A stretch of 64,000 nucleotides of DNA from Bdellovibrionales bacterium (lineage in GTDB: Bacteria > Bdellovibrionota > Bdellovibrionia > Bdellovibrionales > UBA1609): contig JBFWON010000004.1 of assembly GCA_050250515.1 (NCBI GenBank), forward strand, positions 3,248-67,247. Direction: 5' to 3'. Below are positions 10,716 through 27,002 of the stretch, in pieces. The notes beneath the pieces are model-generated. The model searched no databases, was not told where the DNA came from, and saw only the letters and a list, made by a program, of their open reading frames with translations. How positions within the stretch are numbered: position 1 is the stretch's first letter; each line of letters opens with the position of its first letter. Position numbers and translations under genes: made by a program.

Positions 10716-11989
10716 CGGCGACGGTAAGCCTTGCGAAGCTCCCTGGCGAATGAAGAGTCCAAGCGAGCGCGATTGAGTGTTTCGATTCGCCGAGACGACA
10801 AATCCAGTGACTTTCGAATCTCCTTTGAATTTGCCGCCTGATCATAAATCCAGTTGATCGCTTCGATCGTTTCGTGCTCGGCGCTGTAAGAGAATTCAGC
10901 GATTCCATCGGCAAATGTTTTGCCAGGTTGCGCTGCCGCCGCTAGGGCTTGGTCAATCCGGGCCAAGACCAGCTGCCATTGTTGAACAAATGCCACTTCC
11001 CGATCCTCAAGGCCTTTGGTGCGGGAAGAACCGAAAGTTGCCACATAAACCGTGCGCTTGTGATCATCGGCCCGAATCCATTTCGGATCGTCATCGACGA
11101 TCATGACTCGCTGGCCAGATTCATCGAGAATGCGAAGGTCTTTAAAGTAGCCGTACCCTGCTGAGCCGTAGGAATAGCCGCCCCCATAGCCATATCCACC
11201 ACTATATTGAGTAGACATATGGAAATCCGTCAAGACTCCATCGACAAAATGCCGAAGTCGCTTATCCCCAATTTTGGCCGTATCCGCGATAGCCTGAATG
11301 AGGTGATCATCATTACGTGAAAAGAGAACAATTCCCAAGTTTCGATTTCTGAGCTGCTGAAAGAACCAATCCCAACCTGGCGACATTCCTACGAAAATGG
11401 GGCGGCCTCCCCACTTATTGTTAAAGGAAAATGTGGTGCCTTCGTTTGGAGCACTTCGCTGGTCCAGCAAAGTACCGTCAACATCGATTGCAATGACCGC
11501 TTGATACTTCGTCAGCTTTTCCGCATTGAGACCCGATCGACCCTTACCGGCCTTAACATCGGATACTAATGAGTAGGCCGCAGAATAGGAAACTCTCATC
11601 TCAGCCCTTAGGTCCGCCGCCTCAAGACGAGTCAACTTGTGCTCGCGCATGACGAGATCCAAATTGGTTGGATCGGGCCCAAGGGGCGAAAGCGGCTCAG
11701 GAGGCTTCGGCGGTTTGCTCGCACCGGACGGTTTGTACTCCGATACCTTGCTGGATTTTGTTTCCTTGGCCTTAGACCCAAACATATTGTCGGTCCAAAT
11801 CGCGAGGTACTGTTCACAGGCTTCGGTCCAAAGTTTGTCCATGGTCTCTGGCTTAGCAGTCAGGGGCGTCTCCTGCTTGGCGGCTTGGGCTTCTTTCTCT
11901 TTTTTCTTCTTTTTTGATTTGGATGAGGCCTGAGCTGTTGAAGTCAGCGCCAGAGAAATCAAAATGAGAAGAGCTCGCTTCATGTTCAC
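10706..11989 (-). CDS. Secreted HAD-superfamily (NIF/FCP1-like) phosphatase, family A copy 1
   Basis: Signal peptide ending TAQA; DVDGTL, LFSRN, KDLR and IVDDDP (HAD motifs I-IV). Confidence 0.8.
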   Translation of the reverse strand: MNMKRALLILISLALTSTAQASSKSKKKKKEKEAQAAKQETPLTAKPETMDKLWTEACEQYLAIWTDNMFGSKAKETKSSKVSEYKPSGASKPPKPPEPLSPLGPDPTNLDLVMREHKLTRLEAADLRAEMRVSYSAAYSLVSDVKAGKGRSGLNAEKLTKYQAVIAIDVDGTLLDQRSAPNEGTTFSFNNKWGGRPIFVGMSPGWDWFFQQLRNRNLGIVLFSRNDDHLIQAIADTAKIGDKRLRHFVDGVLTDFHMSTQYSGGYGYGGGYSYGSAGYGYFKDLRILDESGQRVMIVDDDPKWIRADDHKRTVYVATFGSSRTKGLEDREVAFVQQWQLVLARIDQALAAAAQPGKTFADGIAEFSYSAEHETIEAINWIYDQAANSKEIRKSLDLSSRRIETLNRARLDSSFARELRKAYRRRHR

Positions 11990-11991
11990 GA

Positions 11992-13371
11992 TTAGTCCTT
12001 GTCGTCTTTGTCTATGTCGTCTTTGCTGGAGAACCAGCCAAACATACCCGTCGATGTCTTTGCTTTCTTTTTGTTCTCTTTACCAATCAGGGCTATGGCC
12101 TCTTTAGGATTCTTTCGAATCCAGTCGCGCACATCCTTATATTCCTTAAATTTGGGTATCTTTTCGTAGTCCAGCTCACGATGCTCCTCGAGAAGCTTCC
12201 GAACCACATCTTCCATCAGATAGGTGTAAGGAAGGAGCGCATGTGCCATGGTCACCTGGGGATATTTTCTTACCAATTCAACCGAATCTTCGATTAGGCT
12301 AGCCACGATTTCGAAATCGTTGGCATGCTCCTGCATAAGCTCCTGAACCAAGGAGGGCAGTCGACTGTCTTTTGGCTTTTTGCCTCGTTTGGCAAAATAC
12401 CGATCCTCGGCATCTTTCTCCATCTTGCGTACATCAAATTCTCGGGCGCGAATCACCTGCAGGTGATCTTCTGTTCGAATGTAAATGGGTTCATCATCAA
12501 TGAAGACAATATTTGAGTCCCCCAGAAGACGACGGTCCTTGCGGGCGAATTTGTGCGAATTTTCGACTTGATCTTCCGTCGACGCCGCCGCCAGAAGTCC
12601 TGTGTCTACCATATAACTACCACTCAACACGCCCGCCACATAATGACGTAACGGCTTTCCATCGAGGGTGATAATGTCGGCCAAAGCGTGGATCCGGTAG
12701 TCACTGTTGCGTGAATACAGCACGATCGGCACTTTTAGTTTCAGCAGGCGCCGCAAAAAGTGATCCCAACCCGGCGCCATGGCTACATAAATAGTCTGCT
12801 CTTTGTTCTTGGCCTTCAGTGAAAAGGTGGTTATCCCATCCTTCCATGAGCTTCGGTCCTGATCCAATATGGTTCCGTCAATGTCGAGTGCTATGACTGC
12901 CTTTTCGTGTGCCAGCTTTTTAGGATCCAAACCCGACATGTAGTGGCCGGCCCTTACATTGTTCACAATGCGCAGAAATTCAACATCAGAGGTGATTAAC
13001 TTATGCATTCTTCGATATTGGGCCTGAACTTCGGCGGCTTCAAATCGAGTCAGTTTGAAATCCTTCATCAATTCGTCGATTTTGAAGCGATCGGACTTTT
13101 CAATCCACTGCTCGCGACTTCCCGAACTGACGATTTGAGCTCCACTGTCCACCCGATCAACTGTAAATCTTGAGTAAGTTTTCGACTCTCCAAAAAGATA
13201 GTTCCAATGCCGGGGAAGCGGTTCTCCGGAAGACGTCGGGGCCAAATAGGTCGTAGAAGAGTTCAGGAAAGCTTGGCAATTCAACCAATGATCCTTATCA
13301 AAATCGGCCGCCGACACCACAGCCGGCAGCAAAATTCCCAATATGGTTAGGAGCGAAGCCAGATTTTTCAT
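11992..13371 (-). CDS. Secreted HAD-superfamily phosphatase, family A copy 2
   Basis: Start at MKNLASLL gives a clean signal peptide; DIDGTIL, LYSRN, RKDRR, FIDDE. Confidence 0.8.
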   Translation of the reverse strand: MKNLASLLTILGILLPAVVSAADFDKDHWLNCQAFLNSSTTYLAPTSSGEPLPRHWNYLFGESKTYSRFTVDRVDSGAQIVSSGSREQWIEKSDRFKIDELMKDFKLTRFEAAEVQAQYRRMHKLITSDVEFLRIVNNVRAGHYMSGLDPKKLAHEKAVIALDIDGTILDQDRSSWKDGITTFSLKAKNKEQTIYVAMAPGWDHFLRRLLKLKVPIVLYSRNSDYRIHALADIITLDGKPLRHYVAGVLSGSYMVDTGLLAAASTEDQVENSHKFARKDRRLLGDSNIVFIDDEPIYIRTEDHLQVIRAREFDVRKMEKDAEDRYFAKRGKKPKDSRLPSLVQELMQEHANDFEIVASLIEDSVELVRKYPQVTMAHALLPYTYLMEDVVRKLLEEHRELDYEKIPKFKEYKDVRDWIRKNPKEAIALIGKENKKKAKTSTGMFGWFSSKDDIDKDDKD

Positions 13372-13536
13372 ATTCGGCCAGTTTGTATGCAAAGGTTGTG
13401 CTTCATCAAGAACCACAAGGAAACGGGCCCGTACATTTCCCGCCCAAAATTGGCAGCACGGTTACGAAATTGAGCCTGAAAAGTGATCTAAACGTGCGAT
13501 TTAGGCTCCCTCTTTCAAAAAAGCGGACAATGAACC

Positions 13537-13552: not shown

Positions 13553-13622
13553 CTCTAGCACCACGATCTAACATTTGAGCCGCACGAGGTTTGTTTTGGA
13601 ACGTTATGTGCCGAGGAAGGCC

Positions 13623-15206
13623 ATGGGCCTAAATTTAGTCGCCTTGCTGTGTGTGGGAGCCCTCCATCTCACTTCGGCCGCTGCATCCATATCCAGCCTG
13701 CTGAACCAAGAGGATCGGCCTGATATTATGGAGGTCAGCAAAATTCCCGAAAAGGAGTGGATTGAGTTCTATGGCTCTGGTGCTCTCACTGCTGATGGCA
13801 AAACTGAAAAGGTTTTTCCGTTGGTCAGAGCCCTTCAACAAATTTTAAGCTCCTCCTATTCTGGCCAAGATATCTACATATTAGGTCGCGACGGCGAGCC
13901 CATTTTCGATGCTCTCCGAGTCAGCGCAAAAAGCTCCGCTCAGCGCGAGCGCATACATCTGATTCAAATTAGCCGAAAGGTCGTGCAGACCACCAACGCC
14001 GCGCAGATTCTTGGCTATCTCAAGCACCACGGATTTGATCTGCCATCGATAACTAGTGGCCATCAATCGGCCGTCTTTATCGACACAGGATATTCTGGAA
14101 CTATTTATCGTAGCCTCCTATCCACCTTTACCGCGCGTCTCAAACAGGCCGGCGTTGATGGGGCAGGTTTAAGAAATTTCTTTTCGAATGTTGATTTTCG
14201 ACTTATCGCTTCGGAAAATTCTGAGAATCCGAGCTTTGACACTCTCAAAGAAAAAGTCGTTACCAACGGCCCTAACTATGCCTGGAGCTTGGTTCAGTCA
14301 GCCAACGTAAGCGGCCTCAGCTTTGGGACCATTCCCAGCGGAAGCTGGCGAAGCAAAGCTGGATTGCCCAGCGACAATCACTCCTCTTGGCAATGGGTTG
14401 TAACAAATTTGGAATACACCGCCAAATGGATGGGACGATGTCAGTCCGTCACCGCCAGCGGCGTTGAGAATTTTATGCCGGACGGGAAAGACCACCAGTA
14501 TCTAGATCGAAAAGCTTACTTGAAACGAATGGCCACGATTGTGGCTGAGTTCTCAGCCTTTCAGAAGCCGATCGAAAAGGTAACGCCGATAAAGGCCGCT
14601 CTCACCCCGCTCGATGCCGAGCAACTGGTCGGACAGGATTTAGGCCCTGGAGATTTAATTAAGGCGGATTCGCAAGTGTTCTCAGTTGTAAAGGAACTCG
14701 AGAGTACGGACGACGCCCGCTATTTCCTTATCAACGAAGTTAAGACCGACAAGGCACGCGTTCTAAAAGTCATGGCTGATGGAGCCGACCCAGAGGTCAT
14801 TGCAGTCGATGTCCGCAATGCCCGCCGATTCAAGAAATTCAATGTTCCTCATTCGCGCGTCGTTGCCCACGGAGAATCTTACCTGATTCGCAGTCACGTT
14901 GAAGGCACCCTTGCCCGCGACTGGGTGAAGTCGTGGATAAAGGCGGGAGAGCCGCAAAGCAATTCAGCGCTTAAGGCGTTAAGGGTTTTAATAAAAGACC
15001 TCGCGAGTCAGGGCGTCTACATCGGCAACCTTAATCTGAATGGCACCGTTTGGTCGGGATCTGAATGGGTGGTAATCGAATCCGGAAAAGTTCGAACGGG
15101 TAAGGCTTCCGCTGAAGTCATGGCAGACTATGTGGAAAACATCAATCGTCGATGGCTCAAGCACTCCAAATGTGAAAAGCTGCTCGAACTTAAGGAAGCC
15201 GCATGA
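13623..15206 (+). CDS. Secreted PRTase-like domain + degenerate kinase-like domain protein, family B copy 1
   Basis: ATG 13623 after GAGGAAGG; signal peptide; YILGRDGE and VFIDTGYSGTI; kinase-like C-terminus VLKV...YIGNLN...VIESG; ends CEKLLELKEAA. Confidence 0.7.
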   Translation: MGLNLVALLCVGALHLTSAAASISSLLNQEDRPDIMEVSKIPEKEWIEFYGSGALTADGKTEKVFPLVRALQQILSSSYSGQDIYILGRDGEPIFDALRVSAKSSAQRERIHLIQISRKVVQTTNAAQILGYLKHHGFDLPSITSGHQSAVFIDTGYSGTIYRSLLSTFTARLKQAGVDGAGLRNFFSNVDFRLIASENSENPSFDTLKEKVVTNGPNYAWSLVQSANVSGLSFGTIPSGSWRSKAGLPSDNHSSWQWVVTNLEYTAKWMGRCQSVTASGVENFMPDGKDHQYLDRKAYLKRMATIVAEFSAFQKPIEKVTPIKAALTPLDAEQLVGQDLGPGDLIKADSQVFSVVKELESTDDARYFLINEVKTDKARVLKVMADGADPEVIAVDVRNARRFKKFNVPHSRVVAHGESYLIRSHVEGTLARDWVKSWIKAGEPQSNSALKALRVLIKDLASQGVYIGNLNLNGTVWSGSEWVVIESGKVRTGKASAEVMADYVENINRRWLKHSKCEKLLELKEAA

Positions 15207-16666
15207 AGCTTTGGATTGCCCTTGCGCTATGGTCGTCCACCGGGTTTGCCTCGGACTGGAATAACCCCTCCACTGGCCACCAAGACCCCCCGTTTTTTCA
15301 AGAATGTCAGGCGTTCTTGGCTTCCGTTTCTCCTTTTCGGGGATCTGTTTCTCAATTCCAACAGCTTCCCCATCACTGGCAGTATTTGTATGGCGAATCC
15401 GAGCCCACCCCCCGATTTACGATTCAACGGGCCCATGAAGACCACATTCCCAATGCCTCCTCTGTTAGCGATGAGCTTTACATAGAAAAATCAGAACGCT
15501 TTAATATTGATGCCCTTATGCGCGACTTCAGCCTATCGCGCTTGCAGGCCGCTGAAGTCCAGGCCCAATACCGAAGGGCACATAAACTGATCGCTTCTGA
15601 TTTGGAATTCACGCGCATCGTTTCGGACGTGCGCGCGGGTCGCTTTATGTCGGGTATTAATGAGCAAGACCTGCTCCGCAACCCCACCGTCGTCGTTTTA
15701 GATGTAGATGGTACGCTTTTGGACCAAGACCATAGCTCGTGGAAAGACGGCCTGACCACCTTTTCCTTTCGCGATGAGGGCAAGTACAAAACCGTTCACG
15801 TGTCGATGACTCCAGGTTGGGACATTTTGATCAAAAAATTGGTCGAACTAAAAGTTCCTGTCGTTCTTTATTCGAGAAATTCGGATTATTTGATCCAAGC
15901 CCTTGTGGATTTCATTCAACTCGACGGACGTCCCCTACGCTCATATGTTGCCGGGGTCCTCTCCTCAAGTCATATGGTTGACACCGGGCAATTTGCAACC
16001 GCCACGATTCGTGAGCAAATTTCGAATCAATCTAGGCTCGTTCGCAAAGATCTTCGGATGCTGGGTGGGTCGAACGTAATCTTGATAGACGACGATGAAA
16101 AATACATTCGCGAAGACGACTACCTGCAAGTGCGAAAAGTGAAAAAGTTTGATCCGAGTTATGCCAGGCCAGAGGAGTTTGTCGATCAGTTTCGGCGTGT
16201 TTCCCTTGAGATTGCTGAGTCAGTGTCCGTGGTCCGCAAATACGGCATTGAGTTTTCGCGCGCCCACCTACCCTTTGCATTTGAAATGAAATCAGTGATG
16301 CTTTCATTGTTAGAGATCGATCGATTTGGTGAGTTTAAGGGAATTCCGCGATTCAAAACGCCCGTCGAGGCCCGAATTTGGGTTCGCACGCATCCGGAAA
16401 AAGCGATTGCACTCATTGGCAAGTCCAACAAACGACCAGAACTTAAGTACATTCCCAAACCCTCTTCTTGGTTCGGCGGATGGCTGGGTCGCCCATGGGG
16501 CTCGACCGGCAATGACCATGAGGCGGTAGTGAAGCCATCGGAAACTGGACCGCGCCCGAATACACCTCCCTCTACTAGCGGCTCGGGTTGGGATTCTCGC
16601 TTAGACACTACCGTTCCCAGACCACGTCCCAAACTGATTTTACCAGGAGATGGCGATGGGTCTTAG
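15203..16666 (+). CDS. Secreted HAD-superfamily phosphatase, family A copy 3
   Basis: ATGA-coupled to upstream gene; signal peptide; DVDGTLL, LYSRN, RKDLR, LIDDD. Confidence 0.8.
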   Translation: MKLWIALALWSSTGFASDWNNPSTGHQDPPFFQECQAFLASVSPFRGSVSQFQQLPHHWQYLYGESEPTPRFTIQRAHEDHIPNASSVSDELYIEKSERFNIDALMRDFSLSRLQAAEVQAQYRRAHKLIASDLEFTRIVSDVRAGRFMSGINEQDLLRNPTVVVLDVDGTLLDQDHSSWKDGLTTFSFRDEGKYKTVHVSMTPGWDILIKKLVELKVPVVLYSRNSDYLIQALVDFIQLDGRPLRSYVAGVLSSSHMVDTGQFATATIREQISNQSRLVRKDLRMLGGSNVILIDDDEKYIREDDYLQVRKVKKFDPSYARPEEFVDQFRRVSLEIAESVSVVRKYGIEFSRAHLPFAFEMKSVMLSLLEIDRFGEFKGIPRFKTPVEARIWVRTHPEKAIALIGKSNKRPELKYIPKPSSWFGGWLGRPWGSTGNDHEAVVKPSETGPRPNTPPSTSGSGWDSRLDTTVPRPRPKLILPGDGDGS

Positions 16667-18467
16667 ACTTTTTCGCCTCTTGTTAGGAAGCAGCCTCCTA
16701 CTCATTAGTTTCTCTTCTTATGCTGGCTACTTTTCACAAATGCGACCCCACATCCTAAATGTGGCACCGAGCGCGGCAACAGTCGAAACCCCAGCTGGTT
16801 GGAATGCCCTCCGACGGGGTTACATGCTTTTGATGGCCGAGTTAATGGCCTTTTTCCCTGACGACGACTACTACTTTCTCGCAAGGGACATTGAGTATCT
16901 TCATGACGTCGCGGTCGTGTTGCTCAAGAACGATCCCAAGCTTAGTGCACGCCTTCACCTGGTGCCCGTGAGTAGCAATGTCAGCCAAAGCGGTTACCTT
17001 AAGCAATATCTGACTCAGGAGGGAATCAATACGGCCAATCTGCAAGGGCGATCAGCGCTCGTCATTGACTCGTGCTGCGCCGGATCCATCCCTAAAAAGA
17101 TCATCAACTATTTCGCCGGCGTCCAAAAGGTCAGAGGGTTTCTTATTTCGACGACTGCTTTTCCGAAGAGCAATCTGTTTGAAAACTACTCTGGATACAC
17201 CGGAAACAGCATCGAGGGGCACCCGCATTACACCGCCTCAGCCTCGCACATTGAGAACGTCGGTGGAAAGCTTGAAGTCGTGGTTAACCAGTACGAAAAC
17301 CAAAAAGCGTCGGAAAAGATAATGGCCAGTATCCGTTATCATCTAGACAATGAAGGCGCACGCCAAGAATTTTTTGAAATCACCGGCTTAATGCGAGACG
17401 TGTTTGATTTCATCACGGGAAAAACGGGACACGCCTCAACAGCATCCGCCGCCTACTTTAAACTCAAGAACACTCATGGCATTCCCATGGAGCATTTCGA
17501 AGCCGACATTCGCACGATGGGGATGTACGCCACGATTCACGAGGAACGATTTCCAGTTTTGACAGCACCTAAAACCTCCACTGCAGAGGTGATCCCGACT
17601 CCTGTCTTTATGCCGGCGCCTGTGCCAGCGGCGGTCTCTCCGCTGGAACACCTTCTTCCACCGAAAGGGCTCGTAGTCGGACAATACGGCGAGACCGTAG
17701 CCCAAGGGTTGAAGATGCTTGTCAAGAGCGTCGACGTAATAATCAAAGATCCCGGTTATTCAAATGCGCCTTTGAAATGGTTCTCGTTACTTCCGCAAGC
17801 GCTGAAGGAAAACCCCTCTAGCACCATGGTTCGAAATGCCCTCTTAGTTGGGGAAAAGGCCGGAGTCTTAGATCAAGCCTTAAAATGGTTGATAAAATCC
17901 CTGCCCGCTTCCGCTTTCGAAGACTCAGATGAGGATCATCCTGTAGCCGATGACATCACCAGTGCGGTGGCCTCGGGAATAACCACTGCAGCTGGCACGC
18001 AGGGGTTTGACCCGGATGGCTCCATCATGAAAGCGACGTGGAAACTAGAACTAACCGCTTCTCCCTTCATTATGAAGCGCCTCTTTCACAAGGCAATGGA
18101 AGAAGTGGGCGAACAAGATTTGCACAAGTTACTTTATAATATCCTGACGGATGGAAACCTTGTCAAAAATCGGCGACTCGCCCGTTGGATCAAGAACTCT
18201 CTAGAACGCTTCACCAATATAGCTCCTGTGTTGGTTAAAAGAATCTTAGACGTAGCCGTGTTGCAGAAGCAAAATCGAATTTTGCGACGCCTATACGACG
18301 CCCGAAACAAGATTTCGGAAAAGGGACTGGCCCTCCCGATTTCAAAAGAGGTCGCCAAAGGTTTGCACATCAAATTTGTCGAGGGCATGACCCTAAAAAA
18401 TGCATTTGCCGAATACGAAAAGGTTCTAAAAAAGAAAAAATGTGAAGAGGCGCTGGATGCAGCCTAA
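16656..18467 (+). CDS. Secreted PRTase-like domain protein with helical C-terminal extension, family C copy 1
   Basis: Start 16656 (or 16650) after AGGAG; YYFLARDIEYL, VIDSCCAGSIP, EGHPHYT; ends CEEALDAA. Confidence 0.7.
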   Translation: MGLRLFRLLLGSSLLLISFSSYAGYFSQMRPHILNVAPSAATVETPAGWNALRRGYMLLMAELMAFFPDDDYYFLARDIEYLHDVAVVLLKNDPKLSARLHLVPVSSNVSQSGYLKQYLTQEGINTANLQGRSALVIDSCCAGSIPKKIINYFAGVQKVRGFLISTTAFPKSNLFENYSGYTGNSIEGHPHYTASASHIENVGGKLEVVVNQYENQKASEKIMASIRYHLDNEGARQEFFEITGLMRDVFDFITGKTGHASTASAAYFKLKNTHGIPMEHFEADIRTMGMYATIHEERFPVLTAPKTSTAEVIPTPVFMPAPVPAAVSPLEHLLPPKGLVVGQYGETVAQGLKMLVKSVDVIIKDPGYSNAPLKWFSLLPQALKENPSSTMVRNALLVGEKAGVLDQALKWLIKSLPASAFEDSDEDHPVADDITSAVASGITTAAGTQGFDPDGSIMKATWKLELTASPFIMKRLFHKAMEEVGEQDLHKLLYNILTDGNLVKNRRLARWIKNSLERFTNIAPVLVKRILDVAVLQKQNRILRRLYDARNKISEKGLALPISKEVAKGLHIKFVEGMTLKNAFAEYEKVLKKKKCEEALDAA

Positions 18468-18480
18468 GGAGTATAGTGTC

Positions 18481-19854
18481 ATGTCCATTCGAGGGATGCT
18501 GCTGGTCGGACTGATCGCGGGAGGTTTTTCATCCTGGGCCCAGAATGAATATGTGACCGGCACTCGGTCCAACTATGACGAGGTGACCACCACAGCTCGG
18601 GATAGGGGCAAACTCCTGCTTGAGAAAGAAGTGGGCGAGTTTGCCAATGGAAATACTTATGTTCGCCTGTCAAAGGATGTGGCAGCCGACAACGTCGACT
18701 TTATGCTGCCAACGAAATTAACCTCTGATTCGCTGATGGAGGCTTTGATCACGATTTTCACATTGAAGCGCAACGGAGCCCATCAAGTACGTGTACATAT
18801 GGCCGGCCGAGCGGCGCGAGTCGAAGTGACGGATTTGCCGGAATTCGAGTCCATAGCCGTTGATAATTGGCTTAAGGCCGCGGGCGCCGACGAACTTATT
18901 GTAGGTGGAACCAGACGAAGCCTGCGCCGATATCCCATCGCAAAAGCTCAAGCCGCGCGAGGCCGCCCCGCTATTGTGCAGATCAACCACTCTCGCTTGG
19001 CTCGAAGCCTTGGCGACCTGCTGGATATTGAGGTGCTGCACCGGCTTTCTCGCGAAAACATTCGTGGACGAGCGATTCAGTTGGTCGGTCCGGCGCCAGA
19101 GCCGGTCAACGCCAGCTTCTTTCGTGTGCTGATGACCGCAGTGAAAATTCATCGCTTAGGTCCGGCGAGCCTGGAACTTTTGACTCCCTACCTACCGTAC
19201 TCGAGGTCGGATAAGGTCGACAGCCCTGGAACAGCTGTGGTCGGCAAGCTCATCGCCTCTTTGATTGAGGCGAGCGGAGTCACTTCTGTCTCCTTTGTTC
19301 GATCCCACGCCGCTCAAGCCGTGGGATTCTTCAATATTCCGGCGGACAATATCTCAGGTCGAAAAACGATCAATCGATACCTAAAATCCCTTGGTGTTGA
19401 AACTGTCACCTCACCTGACACCGGGTTTGAGAAAGATGCCACGTTGTTCGCCGACGAAAACTCGATGCTTTTGTCGGTGATCAACAAACAACGCGATCCT
19501 GTCACTGGAAAGTTGCGAATCGTAGGGATTTCCGGTGCCGAGCATGTGAAAGGGCGAAAAGTGGTGATCATCGATGACGAAACGGCTTCTGGTGGGACGC
19601 TCGCGGAGGCGGCTGAATACTTGGTGAACCTTGGCGCTGAGGAAGTCTATGCGGTCGTGACTCACCTGGCGGGGCACGCGAAATCCGCATTGAATTCCCC
19701 TCATATCAAGCAAATCATCGTTACCAATACTTTGCCCGTGACGGCGGAGAGTCCGAAACTCAAGGTGTTGGATATCTCTGAAGAGCTGGCCCGCAATCTT
19801 CGCTTGTTTCGTAAGAGCGCGCGCACCCTAATTTGCGACGGAGCCCTGGAATAA
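18481..19854 (+). CDS. Ribose-phosphate pyrophosphokinase-like protein with signal peptide and duplicated N-terminal domain
   Basis: FANGNTYVRL, PYLPYSRSDK, SHAAQ, SPDTG, INKQR, IIDDETASGGTL, YAVVTH; AAGGAG RBS before 18481. Confidence 0.85.
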   Translation: MSIRGMLLVGLIAGGFSSWAQNEYVTGTRSNYDEVTTTARDRGKLLLEKEVGEFANGNTYVRLSKDVAADNVDFMLPTKLTSDSLMEALITIFTLKRNGAHQVRVHMAGRAARVEVTDLPEFESIAVDNWLKAAGADELIVGGTRRSLRRYPIAKAQAARGRPAIVQINHSRLARSLGDLLDIEVLHRLSRENIRGRAIQLVGPAPEPVNASFFRVLMTAVKIHRLGPASLELLTPYLPYSRSDKVDSPGTAVVGKLIASLIEASGVTSVSFVRSHAAQAVGFFNIPADNISGRKTINRYLKSLGVETVTSPDTGFEKDATLFADENSMLLSVINKQRDPVTGKLRIVGISGAEHVKGRKVVIIDDETASGGTLAEAAEYLVNLGAEEVYAVVTHLAGHAKSALNSPHIKQIIVTNTLPVTAESPKLKVLDISEELARNLRLFRKSARTLICDGALE

Positions 19855-19921
19855 AAGGCCTCCAATGGTCACCTAAAGTGCTGAAAATTATAGCGAAAAT
19901 TGTCTCCAATTGACCAGAAAG

Positions 19922-19947
19922 GGCGCCTCAAAGGCGCCTGGTTTTTT
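19922..19947 (+). terminator. Rho-independent terminator
   Basis: ggcgcct-caa-aggcgcc stem followed by tggtttttt, downstream of the PRPP synthetase-like gene. Confidence 0.7.
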
Positions 19948-19994
19948 GCCGGCGACCTCAGGTCCAATTCGTTTCACTTGGCTCAAGCTTCTTT

Positions 19995-20010
19995 TGGCAC
20001 AAGGCCTGCT
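19995..20010 (+). promoter_or_regulatory. Putative sigma54 -24/-12 promoter for the 20058-28046 unit
   Basis: TGGCAC-AAGGC-CTGCT, GG-N10-GC. Confidence 0.6.
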
Positions 20011-20057
20011 TTATCTCTCCTCGTCCATAAAACTTTAAGAATTTGAGAGGTCGACCC

Positions 20058-21023
20058 ATGCAGCGCCCGGTTTGTCTTTGCCTTGCCCTCGCCATTGGAC
20101 TGTCTACGGCTCCCGCCTTCGCGGCCCGAGCCAAAAAACCCAAGGCACCGCCGGCCCAGCCGATCGCTCAAGACGTCTGTGAGCCCGCCCTTGCGACGGC
20201 TGCCACAAGCAACGGGGCGCCGTCTGAGGTTTCGCTGATCGCGGACTCAGTTGATCGTATGGCGAACTTCAAAAAACTATTCGGCACCTCAAAACCCATC
20301 ATCGCTATGGTTCACCTAGCTGGCAAAGACACTTGGGACATTTTAAAGCGAGTTGAAGAAGAATTAGATATTTTTGTCCGCCAGGGCGTCGAAGCAGTGA
20401 TTGTGGAAAACTATCACAGCAAAGACGTGAACGTCATGCACCTGGCTCTCCACCTTTTCGTCAAACGCTACCCACAATTGGTCTTTGGCGTAAATGTTCT
20501 CCCCAACGAAATTGAAGTAGCCTACGAAATGGCGGCTGCCCATGGTGCCAAATTTATCCAATTTGACCACGTGGCTGGCACCTACATGGGATTTGGGTAC
20601 AGCGGCGCAACTCGAAAAGCCGACCGAAAAAAACTGGAAGAAATGCGAAAGAAGTATCCTCAAATCCAAATTCTGGGTGGGGTTCACCCCAAATACTACG
20701 ATCCCGTTCCTGGATCAGACCTCGGAAAAGATTTGCGTCGAGGTGTTCGCCGGTCTGACGCGATCGTGGTCACGGGTACGGGAACTGGCATCGCCACTCC
20801 TTTAGATAAGATCAAAATTTTTCGTCAAGAAATCGGAGCTAAGGTCCCTTTGGTGGTCGGAGCCGGCGTCGACATTCAAAATGTCCGAAGTCAACTAGCC
20901 ATAGCGGACGGAGTGATCATTGGAAGTTACTTCAAGGGAGGTGAAACCTTCAACAAGACTGACGAAGGTCTCGTAGCTGGTTTTATGAAAGTGGTGCGTG
21001 AAATCCGGGATCAAAATCCGTGA
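20058..21023 (+). CDS. BtpA/SgcQ family TIM-barrel protein with signal peptide
   Basis: KPIIAMVHL, VIVENY, GVNVL, DAIVVTGTGTG, ADGVIIGSYFK; signal ending APAFA. Confidence 0.85.
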   Translation: MQRPVCLCLALAIGLSTAPAFAARAKKPKAPPAQPIAQDVCEPALATAATSNGAPSEVSLIADSVDRMANFKKLFGTSKPIIAMVHLAGKDTWDILKRVEEELDIFVRQGVEAVIVENYHSKDVNVMHLALHLFVKRYPQLVFGVNVLPNEIEVAYEMAAAHGAKFIQFDHVAGTYMGFGYSGATRKADRKKLEEMRKKYPQIQILGGVHPKYYDPVPGSDLGKDLRRGVRRSDAIVVTGTGTGIATPLDKIKIFRQEIGAKVPLVVGAGVDIQNVRSQLAIADGVIIGSYFKGGETFNKTDEGLVAGFMKVVREIRDQNP

Positions 21024-22600
21024 CGATCTTACGCTCATTTCTTCTTGTCCTCGCTATGGTCACTGGTGTCGCCCACGGCGCCACGATTGCTCAGCTGTTA
21101 AAGCAAGAGGAGCGACCGACTATTGAACAGGTCATGGAGATTTCGGAAGCGGATTTCATCAAACACTATGGAGCCGGCGCCTACACAACAGATCCCAAAA
21201 TGTCCGCCATGTTCAACGTCTTTAAAGCCATCCGTACGACAATCGACTCCGAGTATGTCGATTACGACGTTTTTATCCTAGGCCGTGACGGTGAGTCTTT
21301 GTTCGACGCTATGAGGGCTTCTCTAAAAGGGGCGGCCAAAGAGCGTGTTCATCTCGTTCAAATCAGTCGAAAGGTCGTCACGCAGAGTCTGCCTAACGAA
21401 ATCCTCGGCTATCTGGGGCTCAGTGGATTTAATATTGAAGCCCTAAGAACATCAAAGAAGAAAGCCCTTTTTATCGACACCGGATTCAAGGGTAGAATCT
21501 ATCGAAGTCTCTTGAACATATTTTTGACTCAACTCTATCAGAATGGGACATCCGATCACAGCAGTCTAAAAACTTTCCTATCCAACCTCGAATTCAGACT
21601 GATCGCCTCGGAGCAGCCCGCCGGATCCAGCTATCTGACGAGTCGTCAGTATGTCCTGAATGGACAATATGCCATTCAACACATGCTTCAGGTGGCGGGA
21701 CAACTTTACTTCCCCACGATTCCTGAAAAAGATCGGGAAAAGCATGGCCTTCCTGTTGGCCCTAAAGAGTCCTGGAAGTGGGTGGTCGATCACATGGAAC
21801 ACACCGCTAAGTGGACGGGACGCGCCCAGACGGTCTCTTCAACTGGTCAGGTCACCTATCAAGTAGAAGAAAAAGATAAACCGCTTCTCAACAAGCCGGA
21901 GTACCTACGGCGAATGGCCATCTTGGCGAATGAATTTGGTGTCCCAAAAAAGTCAAAGAAGTCCGATGGCAAGGCCGAGATCCGCACCTTTCATTTTCCC
22001 GATTTGGCTCTGATTGGTGAGACCTTATTAGAAGGCGATGTCATTCACATTTCCGGCACAACTTATCACGTACACGCCCACATAGACACTGGCAAGCGAG
22101 GCACAGTTTACAAAATCTCAAATGAGAAAGGCGATCTCTTTGCCCTGAAAGTGGCCAATGAACCCACTGAGGAATGCCTACAGTCCCTGCAGAAAGATGT
22201 TGTCAAATCCGGTCTGTATGCCGCTCTTGGCATCGGATACGCCGAAGTTGTGGCCCACGGCGAAGGTTTCGTGCTGAAGAAATTCATCGAGGGTCAAAGA
22301 GCCGATGAATGGGTTCAAGCCTGGATCGCCGGCGGAAAAAAACAAAACGACAAGGGGTTAAAGGCTCTACGTGCGTGGATCCAACACATCGCAGATCAAG
22401 GATACTATATCGGCGACCTCAACCGCAAAAACGCCATCTGGACCGGTTCTCAATGGGTCATTATCGATGGCGGAGAACCCCGCAGCGATTTGGGCCCCCA
22501 AAAAGCCGCCGAAAAGTTCAGGGAATCCATCAATCACCGCTGGCTCAAACATGTTGATGATGTCGAGTGTGAGTTGATTTTAGTGAAGGAGGCCGCATGA
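21020..22600 (+). CDS. Secreted PRTase-like domain + protein-kinase-like domain protein, family B copy 2
   Basis: FILGRDGE, LFIDTGFKGRI; kinase motifs GKRGTVY, ALKVA, GDLNRKN, IDGG; ends CELILVKEAA. Confidence 0.75.
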   Translation: MTILRSFLLVLAMVTGVAHGATIAQLLKQEERPTIEQVMEISEADFIKHYGAGAYTTDPKMSAMFNVFKAIRTTIDSEYVDYDVFILGRDGESLFDAMRASLKGAAKERVHLVQISRKVVTQSLPNEILGYLGLSGFNIEALRTSKKKALFIDTGFKGRIYRSLLNIFLTQLYQNGTSDHSSLKTFLSNLEFRLIASEQPAGSSYLTSRQYVLNGQYAIQHMLQVAGQLYFPTIPEKDREKHGLPVGPKESWKWVVDHMEHTAKWTGRAQTVSSTGQVTYQVEEKDKPLLNKPEYLRRMAILANEFGVPKKSKKSDGKAEIRTFHFPDLALIGETLLEGDVIHISGTTYHVHAHIDTGKRGTVYKISNEKGDLFALKVANEPTEECLQSLQKDVVKSGLYAALGIGYAEVVAHGEGFVLKKFIEGQRADEWVQAWIAGGKKQNDKGLKALRAWIQHIADQGYYIGDLNRKNAIWTGSQWVIIDGGEPRSDLGPQKAAEKFRESINHRWLKHVDDVECELILVKEAA

Positions 22601-24084
22601 CCCGCCTATTCGTAGTGCTCGGACTGGCCGCACTATCTTCTCAAACCGTTTTGGCCGGCGATAAACCTCATCGACCGAGCGCCTGTGAAGTGTACGCCAC
22701 GACTTCAAATCCCTACGTGCACGCTTCAAAACCTGGCGAAAAAATTCCCAAACATTGGCAGTATCTCTTTGGCGAGGACGAGACCTATCCCCGCTTTAAA
22801 ATTGACCGTGTCGACAAAAGCCAAGACATCGTCGCGCAAGAATCGAGTTCGGAGCACTGGATTGAAAAATCAGATCGCTTCAAAATTGATGAGTTAATGA
22901 AGGATTACAATTTGACTCGACTCGAAGCTGCCGAGGTACAGGCGCAGTACCGTCGCAAGCACAAATTGATCAGTTCCGACTTTGAATTCGAGGCTATTGT
23001 GAATCGAGTTCGGGCCGGCCACTATATGTCGGGTCTCAATCCCAAACAGCTGGCCAAGGCGCCGGCCGTCATTGTGCTCGACATTGATGGGACCTTGCTC
23101 GATCAGGACAGCTCGAAGTGGCATGACGATCTGACTAGTTTTTCCTTTCGATACAACGACAAACTCAAAGGCGTGAATGTCGCAATGGCGCCCGGTTGGG
23201 ATGATTTTCTAAGAAGAATCATGAAGCTCGATCTACCTATAGTTTTGTATTCACGTAATAGCGATTATTTGGTTCATGCTTTAGCCGATTTCATCAAACT
23301 TGATGGCAAGCCCATTTCTCAAGTGGTGTCAGGTATTTTGAGTTCAAGCCACATGGTCGACACCGGGTCTCTGGCCAAGGCCAGCGTCTTTGAACAGACA
23401 AGTTCGGCCTACAAATTTGTTCGCAAAGATTTGCGCCTGATTGGCAATCCCAACATGATTTTAGTCGATGACGATGCCACTTACATTCGAAGAGAAAATC
23501 GCTGGCAAATGCATCAGATTCCAAAATTTGATGTGGAAGACCTAGTGGAGCGGGCCCAAAAAGCCAATCGATCGTCTTTTTCTACTTTTGACAGGGACCG
23601 AGAGGAGCGTGACAAGGGCAAACACGGGCGCAAAAATAAGCGCCGAAAAGAAAAGAAGGATCGCGGATCCCTGATCTTAATGAAGGATTTTATTGAGGCA
23701 GAGAAAGCCGCCCATCGCGACGCCTTTGACCAAGCCGCGGCGGCGATTGAAGAATCCCTCGCGCTCGTGCACAGCCAAGGCCTTAGTCTGTTAGAGGCTC
23801 ACCTACCCTATTCCTATCCGATGCAGGAAGTGATTGAAGAGCTCCTCGACGACGAGCGCAGCGGCGATTTCCAAGATCTTCCCACCTTCAAAGATGAAAC
23901 TGAAGTTTTCAACTGGATAAGACAAAATCCTGAGCAAGCGCGGAATTTGGTCGGAAAAAAGAAGAAAAAGAAAGAATTCAAAAAGCACGACAGCTTTGGC
24001 CCCTTATTTCCTCCCTGGACCTACTTCGGATTAGGGTCCTATGGGAAAGACGATGATGGAGACAAAGGCGATGGCGGGAATTAA
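22597..24084 (+). CDS. Secreted HAD-superfamily phosphatase, family A copy 4
   Basis: ATGA-coupled; signal peptide; DIDGTLL, LYSRN, RKDLR, LVDDD. Confidence 0.8.
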   Translation: MTRLFVVLGLAALSSQTVLAGDKPHRPSACEVYATTSNPYVHASKPGEKIPKHWQYLFGEDETYPRFKIDRVDKSQDIVAQESSSEHWIEKSDRFKIDELMKDYNLTRLEAAEVQAQYRRKHKLISSDFEFEAIVNRVRAGHYMSGLNPKQLAKAPAVIVLDIDGTLLDQDSSKWHDDLTSFSFRYNDKLKGVNVAMAPGWDDFLRRIMKLDLPIVLYSRNSDYLVHALADFIKLDGKPISQVVSGILSSSHMVDTGSLAKASVFEQTSSAYKFVRKDLRLIGNPNMILVDDDATYIRRENRWQMHQIPKFDVEDLVERAQKANRSSFSTFDRDREERDKGKHGRKNKRRKEKKDRGSLILMKDFIEAEKAAHRDAFDQAAAAIEESLALVHSQGLSLLEAHLPYSYPMQEVIEELLDDERSGDFQDLPTFKDETEVFNWIRQNPEQARNLVGKKKKKKEFKKHDSFGPLFPPWTYFGLGSYGKDDDGDKGDGGN

Positions 24085-25933
24085 ACAGGCCCTTGTTTTT
24101 TTGATCCTATTCGTCAGCACCGCTCGGGCGACGGAGTTTTACTCTTCGCGCCCCGACGTCTTAACTCTTAAAGCCGAACAAGTCGGTGCAGAATCCGGCA
24201 TCGCCAGCTCCCATAAGGTTCGCCGTGGTTATATGGTGCTGCTCGCGCAACTTATGACCTTTTTCCCAGACTCCGAGTATTACTTTTTGGCCCGTGACAT
24301 TGAATACCTGTACGACACGGCTCGAGTTTTGTTTCGAAACCAGCCCGCCATGCTAAAGCGATTCCACGTGGTTCCAATCAGCACCGTTTTGTCAAAGTCT
24401 TCGGGCCTGAAAGAATATTTGACCTCCCATGGAGTGACGAAAGCCAAACTCAAAGGGCGGCCCGCCCTGTTTGTGGACTCCTGTTGCGCAGGCACGGTTC
24501 CCGACAACATTAAGGCAGTCCTCCATTACACCGGCGTAAAAGTCCAAGGCTTTTTAATTCAAAACACCAAATACCCGGAAAGCGCGTTGTTCGCCACAAT
24601 CGCGGCAACCGGAAGCGCCATTGAAAAACATCCGCACTATACTCTTTCAGGGACAGGATTTGTGGCCAAGACAGGTATGCCCTACGATGTCTCCACCAGT
24701 GGTCTAGATAAACCGACTCAATCCGTCGCTTTTATGAAATCCATTCGCCATGATTTTGACAACGCATCGGCTCGCAAAGAATTCGCTGATATTTTGAAAC
24801 AAATGCGGATTGTTTATGCTTATCTGACAAAATCGATGGGCATGCACACCGCCCAAGCGGCGAATGCCCTACTCAAGCTCAAGAAGGTGCACGATCTTCC
24901 TGCAGATGAATTGCTAAGTGACATGGTAAGTACGGAGCGTGAAGGCTATGCGTCCGTTGATTCCGCTCGAGTCGAGGCCCTTAAAGAAAAGGTCGCCGGG
25001 GGAATCTATGACCCCGCTATGAAAATGCCCGCGGTCGATACGATGAAAAGCGAATCATCACTTATTGTGAAGGACCTATACAAATACTCGAAGGAAGACC
25101 AGATTGCCATGTCCAAGAGTTCGATGGGTGATTTGGCTGACGACTCAATGGACGATCTGGCGCCAGATCTAGAGCAAGATTTCTCAGGCGGGGATCTCCA
25201 ATCCAAGTATAAGAAAGCCGTGCTGTTTTGGATGAAAGCCCTCGAGCCCTCGTGGATCGAAGCAGAAAAAAGTACTGGTCGCCATTTGATCGTCGCCTCC
25301 GAGCGCGCCGGAACTTTGCCTGAGGCCCTGGATCTCTTGTTCGGCATGATTCCCAATGACTCCTATCTTGAGACCAACGAGCCCCCGGCGATCGTGAAGG
25401 CGGTGGCCTCCAGCGTCACTAGAGCGGCCTCCCACTATCAGTTCACCTTAAGCAGCTCGACTCCCCTGCAAGAAATTTTGCGCCACGATCTGATGCGAAG
25501 CCACTACTTGGCGAAAAAACTGATCCGACAGATTTTGACGGAGGGCAATCCTAAGTATTTTGATCGCCTGGCCCGCACTATCATACAGTCCGCTCCTCAC
25601 CTCGTGGAAAACCCACGCGTATTGCGATGGATGAAGTCGGCGATCGAATCTATGGACAGCATTTCACCATTGCTGTTTCAAGCGATCTGGAACTCAAAAG
25701 ATCTGCCCAAGCATGAAAAGTACAATGGCTTCATTCGCTTCGTACTTTCACAAAAAAAGAAGTTTCAAGACAAGGTGATGAGCTTGGCAGTCTCCTCCAA
25801 GGATCAGGCCTTTCAGGCTTTTCATATGGAAGCCAAATCAGAAAAGATGAGCGTCAAAGAGTTGATCGAGTTGTGGAAAGACCATACAGAGAAAAAAGAC
25901 TGCGAAGAAGCCTTGCTTGAGGAGGCCGCATGA
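24071..25933 (+). CDS. Secreted PRTase-like domain protein with helical C-terminal extension, family C copy 2
   Basis: Start MAGIKQ gives a signal peptide; YYFLARDIEYL, FVDSCCAGTVP, EKHPHYT; ends CEEALLEEAA. Confidence 0.7.
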   Translation: MAGIKQALVFLILFVSTARATEFYSSRPDVLTLKAEQVGAESGIASSHKVRRGYMVLLAQLMTFFPDSEYYFLARDIEYLYDTARVLFRNQPAMLKRFHVVPISTVLSKSSGLKEYLTSHGVTKAKLKGRPALFVDSCCAGTVPDNIKAVLHYTGVKVQGFLIQNTKYPESALFATIAATGSAIEKHPHYTLSGTGFVAKTGMPYDVSTSGLDKPTQSVAFMKSIRHDFDNASARKEFADILKQMRIVYAYLTKSMGMHTAQAANALLKLKKVHDLPADELLSDMVSTEREGYASVDSARVEALKEKVAGGIYDPAMKMPAVDTMKSESSLIVKDLYKYSKEDQIAMSKSSMGDLADDSMDDLAPDLEQDFSGGDLQSKYKKAVLFWMKALEPSWIEAEKSTGRHLIVASERAGTLPEALDLLFGMIPNDSYLETNEPPAIVKAVASSVTRAASHYQFTLSSSTPLQEILRHDLMRSHYLAKKLIRQILTEGNPKYFDRLARTIIQSAPHLVENPRVLRWMKSAIESMDSISPLLFQAIWNSKDLPKHEKYNGFIRFVLSQKKKFQDKVMSLAVSSKDQAFQAFHMEAKSEKMSVKELIELWKDHTEKKDCEEALLEEAA

Positions 25934-26994
25934 TCCGATTCGTTTTGGCTCTTACACTCTTCTTCCATCTGGCTGCGCAGGCGCAAACCGAGGCCCCCAA
26001 GTATTACGATGAGCGCCCTGACGTTTTGACTGTGCAACCGGACCCCAACGGCAAGCGATACTTTCAGCAAGGTGGTTTCAACTACTCGTTGTATGAAAAA
26101 GCGGCGATGGCCTATGGCCCACTCTTAGCCGAGATCATGACTTTCTTTCCCGACGACGAGTATTATTTTTTAGCCCGTGACATTGAGTACCTTTACGACA
26201 CCGCTCGGGTCTTGTTTCAATTCGACGAAGTCACGTCCAAACGTTTTCATCTTTTACCAGTTGGACGCCTCAACGCGACTAGGGCAAACATAGATGAATA
26301 TCTGGCCCAAGAAGGTTTGACTCAAGCCAACCTACAAGGCCGGCAGGCCCTGGCCATTGATTCCTGTTGCTCTGGCAGTATCCCGAAGCACATTGCCGCC
26401 ACGGTGAGAAATCGCGGCGTTCAAGTCCGAGGCTTTTTAATCGAAACTGACGATTTCCCAAAAAGTACACTTTTCAAAAGTATGGCGCTGCGTGGTCGAC
26501 ACATCGAGGATTTTCCCCACTACACGGGGACCGCAAATGGATTTGAACGCGATGCGACCGGTCGCCTTCGGGTCACCACTGAGGGGGAGGAATTCCACCC
26601 TGCGGCTGCGAGCAAGTTGATGTTTGAAATTCGCAAACTCTATGAAAGCGCCGACGCCCGCCGAAGATTTCAAGATATGCGGGAGAAAATGACGACCGCG
26701 TATGAATACTTGAAAGGCGGGTCGAGGTCTCGCGCCGCTGCGATCCAGGCTCTCTTGAGTTTGCGGGACGAGCATAATCTACCGGCTCAAGCGTTTCTCG
26801 ACGATGCCTTCTTAACCAATAAAAGAAATCCACTCTATCTCGTCGATAAATCGCTTTATCAGGACCTCGCCACTTATCTCATGCAACATCCGAAAGAGGT
26901 CCCAGCACCACAGTCTGCCCCCCTGCAAGTCAGCGTTAGCATTTCGATTGGCAACGTCCAAGTTCACTCCTGTCAGGTCGCATTGACACAGTAG
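25930..26994 (+). CDS. Secreted PRTase-like domain protein, family C copy 3 (short)
   Basis: ATGA-coupled; YYFLARDIEYL, AIDSCCSGSIP, EDFPHYT; ends CQVALTQ. Confidence 0.7.
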   Translation: MIRFVLALTLFFHLAAQAQTEAPKYYDERPDVLTVQPDPNGKRYFQQGGFNYSLYEKAAMAYGPLLAEIMTFFPDDEYYFLARDIEYLYDTARVLFQFDEVTSKRFHLLPVGRLNATRANIDEYLAQEGLTQANLQGRQALAIDSCCSGSIPKHIAATVRNRGVQVRGFLIETDDFPKSTLFKSMALRGRHIEDFPHYTGTANGFERDATGRLRVTTEGEEFHPAAASKLMFEIRKLYESADARRRFQDMREKMTTAYEYLKGGSRSRAAAIQALLSLRDEHNLPAQAFLDDAFLTNKRNPLYLVDKSLYQDLATYLMQHPKEVPAPQSAPLQVSVSISIGNVQVHSCQVALTQ

Positions 26995-27002
26995 GAGTGA
27001 TT

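Follow-up and report, generated by a model that had tools for sequence, protein, structure and literature searches.

A three-domain phosphoribosyl pyrophosphate synthetase-like protein with an export-type N-terminus in Bdellovibrionota

We analyzed a 64,000-nucleotide stretch of DNA (hereafter, the window) from a Bdellovibrionales bacterium of the lineage UBA1609, a relative of bacterial predators (assembly GCA_050250515.1, contig JBFWON010000004.1, positions 3,248 to 67,247), in which an open reading frame (ORF) at 18481-19854 on the plus strand encodes 457 amino acids and a stop codon, the length given in an earlier preliminary description of this DNA. The protein is homologous to phosphoribosyl pyrophosphate (PRPP) synthetase (Prs). 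It carries two copies of the Prs N-terminal domain, here called N' and N, followed by one C-terminal domain (C), and the two copies have lost complementary parts, while the catalytic residues are conserved, the N-terminus is of the export type, and the surrounding genes mostly encode proteins with similar N-termini. PRPP synthase is regarded as a strictly cytoplasmic, oligomeric, allosteric housekeeping enzyme whose active site needs two chains. The protein, together with its relatives of the same layout (the long form), is a Prs variant in an unexpected setting: the kind of enzyme is known, and the three-domain form with an export-type N-terminus is new. None of the top-ranked literature records on Bdellovibrio, PRPP synthetases, and export dealt with an exported or three-domain bacterial Prs. 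We put at about even the chance that the long form is, all in all, an exported, single-chain, unregulated PRPP synthase that feeds exported PRPP-using enzymes, likely in a prey or host cell.

Domain layout and complementary losses

Pfam assigned Pribosyltran_N (E value of 2.1e-18, in two stretches), Pribosyl_synth, and Pribosyltran to the 457-amino-acid protein, and the model TIGR01251 scored 201.2 bits against a cut-off of 113. In a genome-wide search, TIGR01251 matched the frame twice, at positions 42-298 (173.5 bits) and, further upstream, at 14-85 (25.9 bits; E value of 4e-6). The 44-sequence family alignment (A1) was then split into parts, each of which was compared by hhalign with 54 canonical Prs sequences. 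N' (residues 22-150) aligned to canonical columns 4-133, the whole N-domain (probability of 98.9%; E value of 1.4e-17), and residues 155-278, containing N, aligned to columns 3-132 (99.8%; E value of 2.4e-27). N' compared with N gave 96.4% (E value of 1.1e-9), whereas N' compared with the C-domain gave 1%. Besides, a separate 17-sequence profile of N' (A2) matched residues 10-128 of human PRPS1 in a PDB profile search (E value of 2.3e-12), the family consensus keFeNgntfvrl being aligned onto the PRPS1 flag KKFSNQETCVEI. Judged from these sequence comparisons, the duplication is far beyond chance. The preliminary description had proposed a duplicated and split N-domain and had expected the first 150 or so residues to align with the Prs N-domain; they do, with the refinement that copy 1 is a whole N-domain rather than a segment of one.

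AlphaFold2, run on A1, returned a confident model (predicted local distance difference test score [pLDDT] of 93.4 and predicted template-modeling score [pTM] of 0.91) with three alpha/beta domains at residues 23-147, 164-273, and 288-445. In this model, residues 161-448 form a complete Prs protomer, superposing on residues 2-308 of human PRPS1 (8dbo_A) with a Z score of 31.5 and a root mean square deviation (rmsd) of 2.0 Å over 284 residues. Foldseek E values to Prs chains were about 1e-21, and the best solved sequence relatives were PRPP synthases (1dkr; E value of 1.9e-31), which cover only residues 152-445 or so. Identity of the long form to canonical Prs is 27 to 29%. A separate, canonical prs gene, anticipated in the preliminary description, lies on another contig of the genome (L001:1492-2439), which is 96% complete; it is full-length (315 amino acids, 391.5 bits, profile positions 1-309) and has no hydrophobic N-terminus, and the protein studied here is thus not the sole Prs.

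The two N-domain copies differ in what they retain. N' keeps the flag hairpin EFANGNTYVRL, which is its most conserved stretch in the family alignment, and has no counterpart of the PYxGYARQDR loop. N keeps the corresponding loop as PYLPYSRSDK, and its alignment to canonical Prs has a single 12-column gap located exactly at the flag hairpin; opposite IGRFADGEVQVEIHESVRG of the genome's own canonical Prs, it reads HRLS------------RENIRG. Further motifs lie at residues 83-100 (DSLMEALITIFTLKRNGA), 275-279 (SHAAQ), 311-315 (SPDTG), 336-338 (KQR), and 363-373 (IIDDETASGGT). Every motif quoted in the preliminary description was found, including those of its normal C-domain, and the functional split that it proposed, with a flag but no ATP loop in copy 1 and with the ATP loop and SHAAQ but no flag in copy 2, is real and conserved in the family, the missing flag of copy 2 being a clean 12-residue deletion.

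In Escherichia coli Prs, the adenine sits between F35 of the neighboring chain and R96 of the same chain; D37 and E39 are likewise contributed by the neighboring chain, and Q97, D98, and H131 belong to the same chain as R96 (PMC6332680). Because the flag residues of the E. coli enzyme are provided by a neighbor, N' keeps the contribution of the partner subunit and N keeps that of the catalytic subunit. The loss pattern fits what would be expected if N' acts as the neighboring subunit of a Prs dimer. The protein would then be a one-chain imitation of the Prs "bent dimer," in which residues 161-448 represent a normal protomer whose own flag hairpin was deleted, N' would occupy the place of the partner subunit's N-domain, and F54, N56, and N58 of the N' flag would close the ATP site against R242, D244, and H276. 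We consider it fairly likely that the N' flag completes the ATP site within the same chain. It might instead be that the protein is a PRPP synthase in which N' serves as a docking or regulatory module, binding a nucleotide or a transferase, and that the ATP site is completed otherwise or across chains. N' has been placed indirectly, its flag residues are not the canonical D and E, and conserved positions outside the flag (E87, L89, A134, and G135) could serve another interface. The loss is exactly reciprocal, however, with the flag only in N' and the ATP loop only in N, the flag is the part of N' under the strongest conservation, and the pTM indicates one fixed three-domain body, so that we regard a docking or regulatory role as rather improbable.

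Residues R242, D244, H276, D313, K336, R338, D365, and D366 do not vary among the 44 long forms of A1 or in an alignment of eight sequences that includes canonical enzymes. Three of them, R242, D244, and H276, correspond to the same-chain ATP-site residues R96, D98, and H131 of E. coli, and K336 and R338 provide the Lys and Arg of the KxR loop, which we take to be the catalytic loop. In the loop that binds ribose 5-phosphate (R5P) and PRPP, D365, D366, and S370-G-G-T373 are kept and the equivalents of D224-T225 read A-S, the general phosphoribosyltransferase (PRTase) form being retained. The invariant catalytic residues match the E. coli residues named in PMC6332680. We infer from this conservation that the long form probably has PRPP synthase activity (ATP + R5P -> PRPP + AMP).

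Fold alone does not prove activity, because the PRPP synthetase-associated proteins PAP39 and PAP41 reach scores close to those of true synthases (Z scores of 29.1 and 27.9, respectively), and the long form could be a noncatalytic relative of this kind that binds nucleotides or partners. In the associated proteins, though, the catalytic residues are lost, whereas all tested catalytic and substrate-binding positions are invariant in the long form, which would be unexpected in a scaffold protein; we therefore judge such a role highly improbable.

The preliminary description suggested that substitutions in the flag, the DLH motif, and the R5P loop may alter specificity. This now appears weakly founded, since human PRPS1, too, has N at flag position 37 and the gene context suggests ordinary PRPP production. 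A canonical-length relative (P0065; 315 amino acids) reads KFANDNSFVQ, YSRSDKKDQ, and DDEVSTAGT, with N at both flag positions; thus, the N-for-D/E flag, RSDK, and DDE variants are older than the duplication and independent of export.

The canonical SVSxLF tail belongs to a three-chain allosteric site for ADP and Pi. The genome's own canonical Prs ends with SVSALF, whereas the C-terminal S-x-S..F motif is absent from the long form studied here, which ends with ICDGALE. Since the three-chain allosteric site and the C-terminal motif are gone, the enzyme should function without forming a hexamer and free of control by ADP and Pi. The protein fits the Prs subfamily and fold, whereas it falls short of the equivalog models and has neither a flag in the N-domain of its catalytic protomer nor the allosteric motif.

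Export-type N-terminus and distribution of the long form

The ATG at 18481 is credible as the start codon because AAGGAG lies nine bases upstream. A longer version starting from GTG at 18442 was rejected as a candidate for a miscalled start; it falls within the upstream gene and has no ribosome-binding site. Residues 1 to 20 comprise a basic residue, a hydrophobic core, and S-W-A ahead of Q21, and cleavage is likely after S-W-A. By a heuristic, the layout (MSIRGMLLVGLIAGGFSSWA before Q) is that of a Sec signal, with basic and hydrophobic parts, small residues at -3 and -1, and no lipobox. Lipoprotein and Tat signals were considered and rejected, as the sequence lacks both a Cys close to the predicted cleavage site and a twin-arginine motif. 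By a hydropathy rule, the N-terminus is hydrophobic in 57 of 64 long-form members versus 1 of 56 canonical Prs; among the seven that fail the rule, three are truncated sequences. The signal peptide noted in the preliminary description is borne out by these results, and we consider it likely that the long form is exported.

A competing explanation is that the protein stays inside the cell, its N-terminus being an uncleaved anchor or functionless, and acts as a second, pathway-dedicated cytoplasmic Prs, comparable to those of prs-nadV operons; dedicated second prs genes are known (PMC2330246), both ATP and R5P are cytoplasmic, and export was called by the hydropathy rule and inspection. We find this quite unlikely for several reasons. 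The N-terminus is arranged as n-h-c regions, positions -3 and -1 are occupied by small residues, and no transmembrane segment follows. The feature, not the sequence, is kept across the long-form members and is nearly missing from canonical Prs. Unrelated neighbors (LOG-like, PRTase, NAD-salvage, and RPD proteins, described below) share a signal-like start. Moreover, even an uncleaved helix would, by the positive-inside rule, place the enzyme outside.

In a search of 5.8 billion proteins, we found at least 63 further long forms (385 to 769 amino acids, 200 to 430 bits, 34 to 50% identity), beyond which the score falls to 124 bits for proteins of about 315 amino acids. A1 took in 44 of the 64 long forms; the 20 left out include the truncated P0038, P0040, and P0057 and the 769-amino-acid fusion P0064. 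Among species-representative genomes, 22 loci encode the long form, and 18 of them bear names of the Bdellovibrionota lineage (Bdellovibrionales, Bdellovibrio sp., Pseudobdellovibrionaceae, Oligoflexia or Oligoflexales, and Bacteriovoracaceae), the other four having only vague (delta)proteobacterial names. Most of the named records are metagenome-assembled genomes of Bdellovibrionota. Within the phylum of the window, the N' profile gave strong matches (79 bits or more; frames of 433 to 1007 amino acids) in 14 of 401 genomes, and the weaker matches, at 45 to 55 bits, are canonical prs genes. In two loci of the Bacteriovoracaceae type (L022:8258-11266 and L024:8258-11266), the three-domain Prs unit is the C-terminal part of a 1002-amino-acid protein, the first 580 or so residues of which begin with a signal peptide and had no match in Pfam or among the local profiles.

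Gene context and putative PRPP users

The features of the gene and its neighbors are listed in Table 1. The hairpin downstream of the gene suggests that 13575-19854 forms one operon and 20043-28046 a second. By the hydropathy rule, 11 of the 12 ORFs within 10706-28046 have an export-type N-terminus, and the twelfth has a shorter hydrophobic start. Profile searches found neither the long form nor the RPD family in four other genomes of the same genus (97 to 100% complete); thus, the island at about 10706-28046 is accessory. Its G+C content (0.49 to 0.52) is not distinctive. Just upstream of the island lie a gene for a 922-amino-acid transketolase-like protein without a hydrophobic start (6584-9352) and, after it, one for an HTTM-domain membrane protein (9327-10715; weak match, E value of 8e-4). 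The window encodes four paralogues of NIF-like (FCP/SCP-type HAD) phosphatases, in which DVDGT or DIDGT is visible; the NIF-like domain is mainly eukaryotic.

Table 1. Features of the three-domain Prs-like gene and of the surrounding island in the window
Feature	Position	Strand	Basis or remark
Shine-Dalgarno-like AAGGAG	18466..18471	+	Nine bases 5' of the ATG; overlaps the stop codon of the upstream ORF; read from the sequence
Predicted Sec signal peptide, residues 1-20	18481..18540	+	Inspection and hydropathy rule; AlphaFold2 confidence low here
N' domain, residues 22-150	18544..18930	+	Additional complete Prs N-terminal domain; RQDR loop missing
Flag hairpin EFANGNTYVRL, residues 53-63	18637..18669	+	F54, N56, N58, and V61 nearly invariant in the family
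N domain, residues 161-278	18961..19314	+	Second copy; 12-residue deletion at the flag, ATP loop kept
PYLPYSRSDK loop, residues 236-245	19186..19215	+	R242, D244, and K245 invariant; loop equivalent to E. coli R96, Q97, and D98
C domain, residues 279-448	19315..19824	+	Type I PRTase fold; SPDTG, KQR, and IIDDETASGGT present
C-terminal tail ICDGALE	19831..19851	+	Contains the only cysteine of the protein, C452; stands in place of the canonical SVSxLF tail
Terminator-like hairpin followed by a T run	19921..19939	+	8 pairs, 6 of them G-C
Two NIF-like phosphatase paralogues	10706..11989, 11992..13416	-	Hydrophobic N-termini
RPD domain with kinase-like C-terminal domain	13575..15206	+	First operon gene; signal peptide; profile; homologue has a weak Pkinase match
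NIF-like HAD phosphatase	15203..16666	+	Signal peptide; PF03031, E value of 6.3e-8; DVDGT; start overlaps the stop of the preceding gene
605-amino-acid exported-type RPD protein	16650..18467	+	Directly upstream of the Prs-like gene; 203 bits to the family profile; fold from paralogue 25930-26994
BtpA-family TIM-barrel protein	20043..21023	+	Heads the second operon; signal-peptide-like start; PF03437, E value of 1.9e-29
RPD and kinase-like protein	21020..22600	+	Second operon
NIF-like phosphatase	22597..24084	+	Second operon; start overlaps the stop of the RPD-kinase gene
RPD proteins of 630, 354, and 349 amino acids	24041..25933, 25930..26994, 26997..28046	+	End of the second operon

Six paralogues in the window form a family, here called RPD, with an invariant RP just past the signal peptide, a GRD, and a later Asp (alignment A3). 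Against 1.84 billion representatives, the RPD profile found 829 proteins with an E value of 1e-3 or lower, 665 with 1e-10 or lower, and 184 with 1e-30 or lower; 138 of 150 RPD representatives have a hydrophobic N-terminus by the hydropathy rule. No Pfam family was found in any of the 97 plus 30 RPD members scanned, a word-based homologue search with 25930-26994 returned only itself and two window paralogues, and a protein-atlas look-up gave only subthreshold PRTase and HAD leads. The AlphaFold2 model of 25930-26994 (97 sequences; pLDDT of 88.7, pTM of 0.85) matched, among structure representatives, residues 639-935 of 8a0c_A, a capsule multienzyme of Haemophilus influenzae type b (Hib), with a Z score of 14.7 and an rmsd of 3.0 Å over 184 aligned residues, and residues 261-579 of 7shg_B, a polysaccharide ribofuranosyl transferase of Thermobacillus composti (Z score of 13.0). 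The next row had a Z score of 7.4, and type I PRTases gave 5.3 to 6.5. The model thus has the PRTase-like catalytic core and the helical bundles of CriT and gPRT. RPD proteins resemble these PRPP-dependent ribofuranosyl-phosphate transferases at the level of the fold, and they would probably use PRPP. Residues D84, D90, and D144 of the family are invariant or nearly so; the catalytic acids of CriT are D680 and E818. In Hib, residues 592-1036 of Bcs3 constitute CriT, which transfers ribofuranose 5-phosphate with PRPP as the donor; the 5-phosphate is subsequently taken off by CrpP, a HAD phosphatase (PMC10299916).

The long-form Prs and the unrelated RPD proteins share a C-terminal motif, in which a Cys located 6 to 12 residues before the C-terminus precedes x-x-[ALF]-[LFY]; examples in RPD genes lie at 26970-26994 and 18440-18467. 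A Cys occurs within the last 15 residues of 46 of 64 long-form Prs and 126 of 150 RPD representatives versus none of 56 canonical Prs, the overall Cys content being 0.3 to 0.6%. The motif may be a sorting or processing tag.

Locally built profiles were run over all ORFs of the 22 long-form loci, and Pfam was run on 51 and then 46 of the 129 neighbors (97 proteins in 20 loci), the outermost genes being left out and L018 and L023 being covered by profile only. Of 26 loci, a tblastn search with the window neighbors had matched only L013 and, with weak matches, L018 and L019; the profiles later found far more. RPD genes occur in 10 of the 22 loci, LOG-like genes in 9, kinase-like domains in 4, and a NIF-like gene in 1. 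LOG/SLOG proteins of 446 to 808 amino acids adjoin the gene in L011, L014 to L017, L019, and L021, and PGGxGTxxE, which we take to be the LOG signature, is kept in 10 of 11 LOG-like proteins. Fusions of NTPase_I-T and PRTase domains occur in L020 and L041, the same module is fused to a Prs-like protein in L026, and NTPase_I-T alone lies downstream of the long form in L012. L027 has a fragment resembling adenine PRTase (APRT), and NrtR adjoins the long form in L026 and L027. In L028, a fusion of nicotinate PRTase (NAPRTase), NMNAT, and isochorismatase (nicotinamidase) domains and a NadE protein are encoded beside the long form. Signal-peptide-like N-termini are present on the LOG-like proteins, the PRTase fusions, and the NAD-salvage enzymes of L028 as well. 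Across genomes, RPD genes were found in 9 of the 14 that have the long form versus 30 of the 387 without it, counts in which related genomes are not independent, and in 7 of the 14 the RPD gene and the long form lie within 10 kb. Besides, near the Prs-like gene of an Oligoflexia metagenome-assembled genome (L020:7112-8272, minus strand), we observed a gene for a RING-finger protein (zf-RING_2; E value of 2.2e-11) whose C-terminal domain is of the Lcl type; the presence of a eukaryote-type RING domain is a hint of dealings with eukaryotic hosts in some carriers.

The context also bears on whether the same scaffold and chemistry might serve a diphosphate acceptor other than R5P, such as ADP-ribose (ADPR) or the ribosylated product of the neighboring transferases. 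The PRPS fold of the phage enzyme Adps accepts ADPR with the equivalent Arg, His, and Asp residues retained (PMC13586617), and NrtR, found beside the long form in two loci, responds to ADPR (PMC2330246). The R5P loop (DDETASGGT), the DLH position (RAH or RSH), and the flag of the long form are variants conserved in the family, and all equivalog models score below the cut-off. Yet, no NadV- or Namat-type partner was seen among the 97 scanned neighbors, which cover part of each genome; PRPP itself is the substrate of all the recurring neighbors (type I PRTase fusions, NAPRTase, and CriT-like proteins); Adps forms a hexamer of two-domain chains with no extra domain; and the phosphate-binding loop of the long form keeps the general PRTase form. 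We therefore consider another acceptor unlikely. Because three unrelated kinds of partner (CriT-like, type I PRTase, and NAPRTase) have PRPP in common, service to exported PRPP users is the simplest reading.

Proposed pathway and comparison with known systems

As a PRPP source for exported enzymes, the long form would make PRPP in the compartment where the other exported PRPP users encoded in these loci are active, namely, CriT/gPRT-like phosphoribosyl transferases with HAD phosphatases in the window and PRTase fusions or NAD-salvage enzymes elsewhere. LOG-type nucleosidases may supply R5P from nucleotides in many loci, and the long form would most likely act in a prey or host cell, or in material leaking from it, which would provide the ATP. 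We advance only tentatively the broader idea that some Bdellovibrionota export a self-contained PRPP pathway, in which LOG proteins would provide R5P, Prs would use the ATP of the victim, and CriT-like proteins would ribosylate a target of the prey or host. In such a pathway, the RPD family (829 clusters), with the HAD phosphatases and kinase-like domains, might (phospho)ribosylate a cell or envelope target of the prey or host, and the shared Cys-containing C-terminal tag may direct protein delivery.

Several points weigh against the long form being an exported PRPP synthase of this kind. To our knowledge, there is no ATP pool in the bacterial periplasm or outside cells; thus, an exported ATP-using enzyme needs a special setting. 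The signal peptide was called by the hydropathy rule and inspection rather than by a trained predictor, and where N' lies with respect to the active site is read from the pattern of losses. All NCBIfam equivalog and subfamily PRK models are below their cut-offs (e.g., NF002320 with 177.9 bits against 297), flag position 39 is N and not E, the R5P loop reads ETASGGT in place of (I/M)IDT(A/G)GT, and DLH is replaced by RSH. As for the PRPP users, the link between RPD and CriT is one of fold: the RPD profile gave only chance-level rows against PDB sequences, and Foldseek with the RPD model against PDB returned nothing above a TM score of about 0.2. The context is also uneven, with 12 of the 22 loci lacking an RPD gene and NIF-like phosphatases confined to a single locus, and 30 genomes have RPD genes and no long-form Prs.

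If the reading as an exported single-chain synthase is correct, the long form would illustrate the internalization of a composite active site through duplication and reciprocal loss, and it could yield a minimal, unregulated PRPP synthase of practical use. A self-contained exported pathway would, in turn, be the first PRPP-dependent chemistry outside the cytoplasm of its producer. Exported PRPP users beside an exported PRPP source would suggest that certain bacteria, predatory or host-associated ones, bring nucleotide-sugar chemistry to bear inside their victims, and they would give a first functional handle on RPD, a large protein family without a Pfam model.

Class I Prs (Prs and PRPS1 of E. 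coli, Bacillus subtilis, and human) shares with the long form the two-domain fold, R96, D98, and H131, the KxR, DD, and SPD motifs, and the aromatic flag residue. In the long form, by contrast, the flag is on an extra third domain, the protomer's own flag is deleted, SVSxLF is absent, and a signal peptide is added. Archaeal class III Prs is likewise without the allosteric ADP site, although it has neither a third domain nor a signal peptide; it is a two-domain cytoplasmic oligomer with sites completed between chains. The class III enzyme of Methanocaldococcus jannaschii (1u9y; Kadziola et al., 2005) is reportedly tetrameric and without allosteric inhibition; the long form matches its fold with a Z score of 24.5. 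Glycan transferases known to depend on PRPP are said to be restricted to the cytoplasm, as this is where PRPP is found.

Prs relatives dedicated to one pathway have precedents. Adps (NARP1) is a PRPS-like ADPR diphosphokinase with domains at residues 1-136 and 137-280, which forms a hexamer and works with Namat (PMC13586617). Like the long form, it is a paralogue of Prs that has been put to use in a specialized pathway and that has the conserved Arg, His, and Asp residues, whereas the long form has three domains and an export signal. The second prs of NrtR-linked prs-nadV operons is similarly an extra prs tied to one PRPP-using pathway, and it is described, in the available portion of the source, as an ordinary cytoplasmic two-domain enzyme with no export signal or extra domain (PMC2330246). 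Finally, the logic of a PRPP donor, a transferase, and a HAD phosphatase is that of gPRT-PRP and of CriT-CrpP in Hib Bcs3 (PMC10299916; PMC11127046); the likeness is at the level of the fold, and, in distinction from those systems, the parts encoded in the window all have signal peptides and are accompanied by a putative PRPP synthase of their own.

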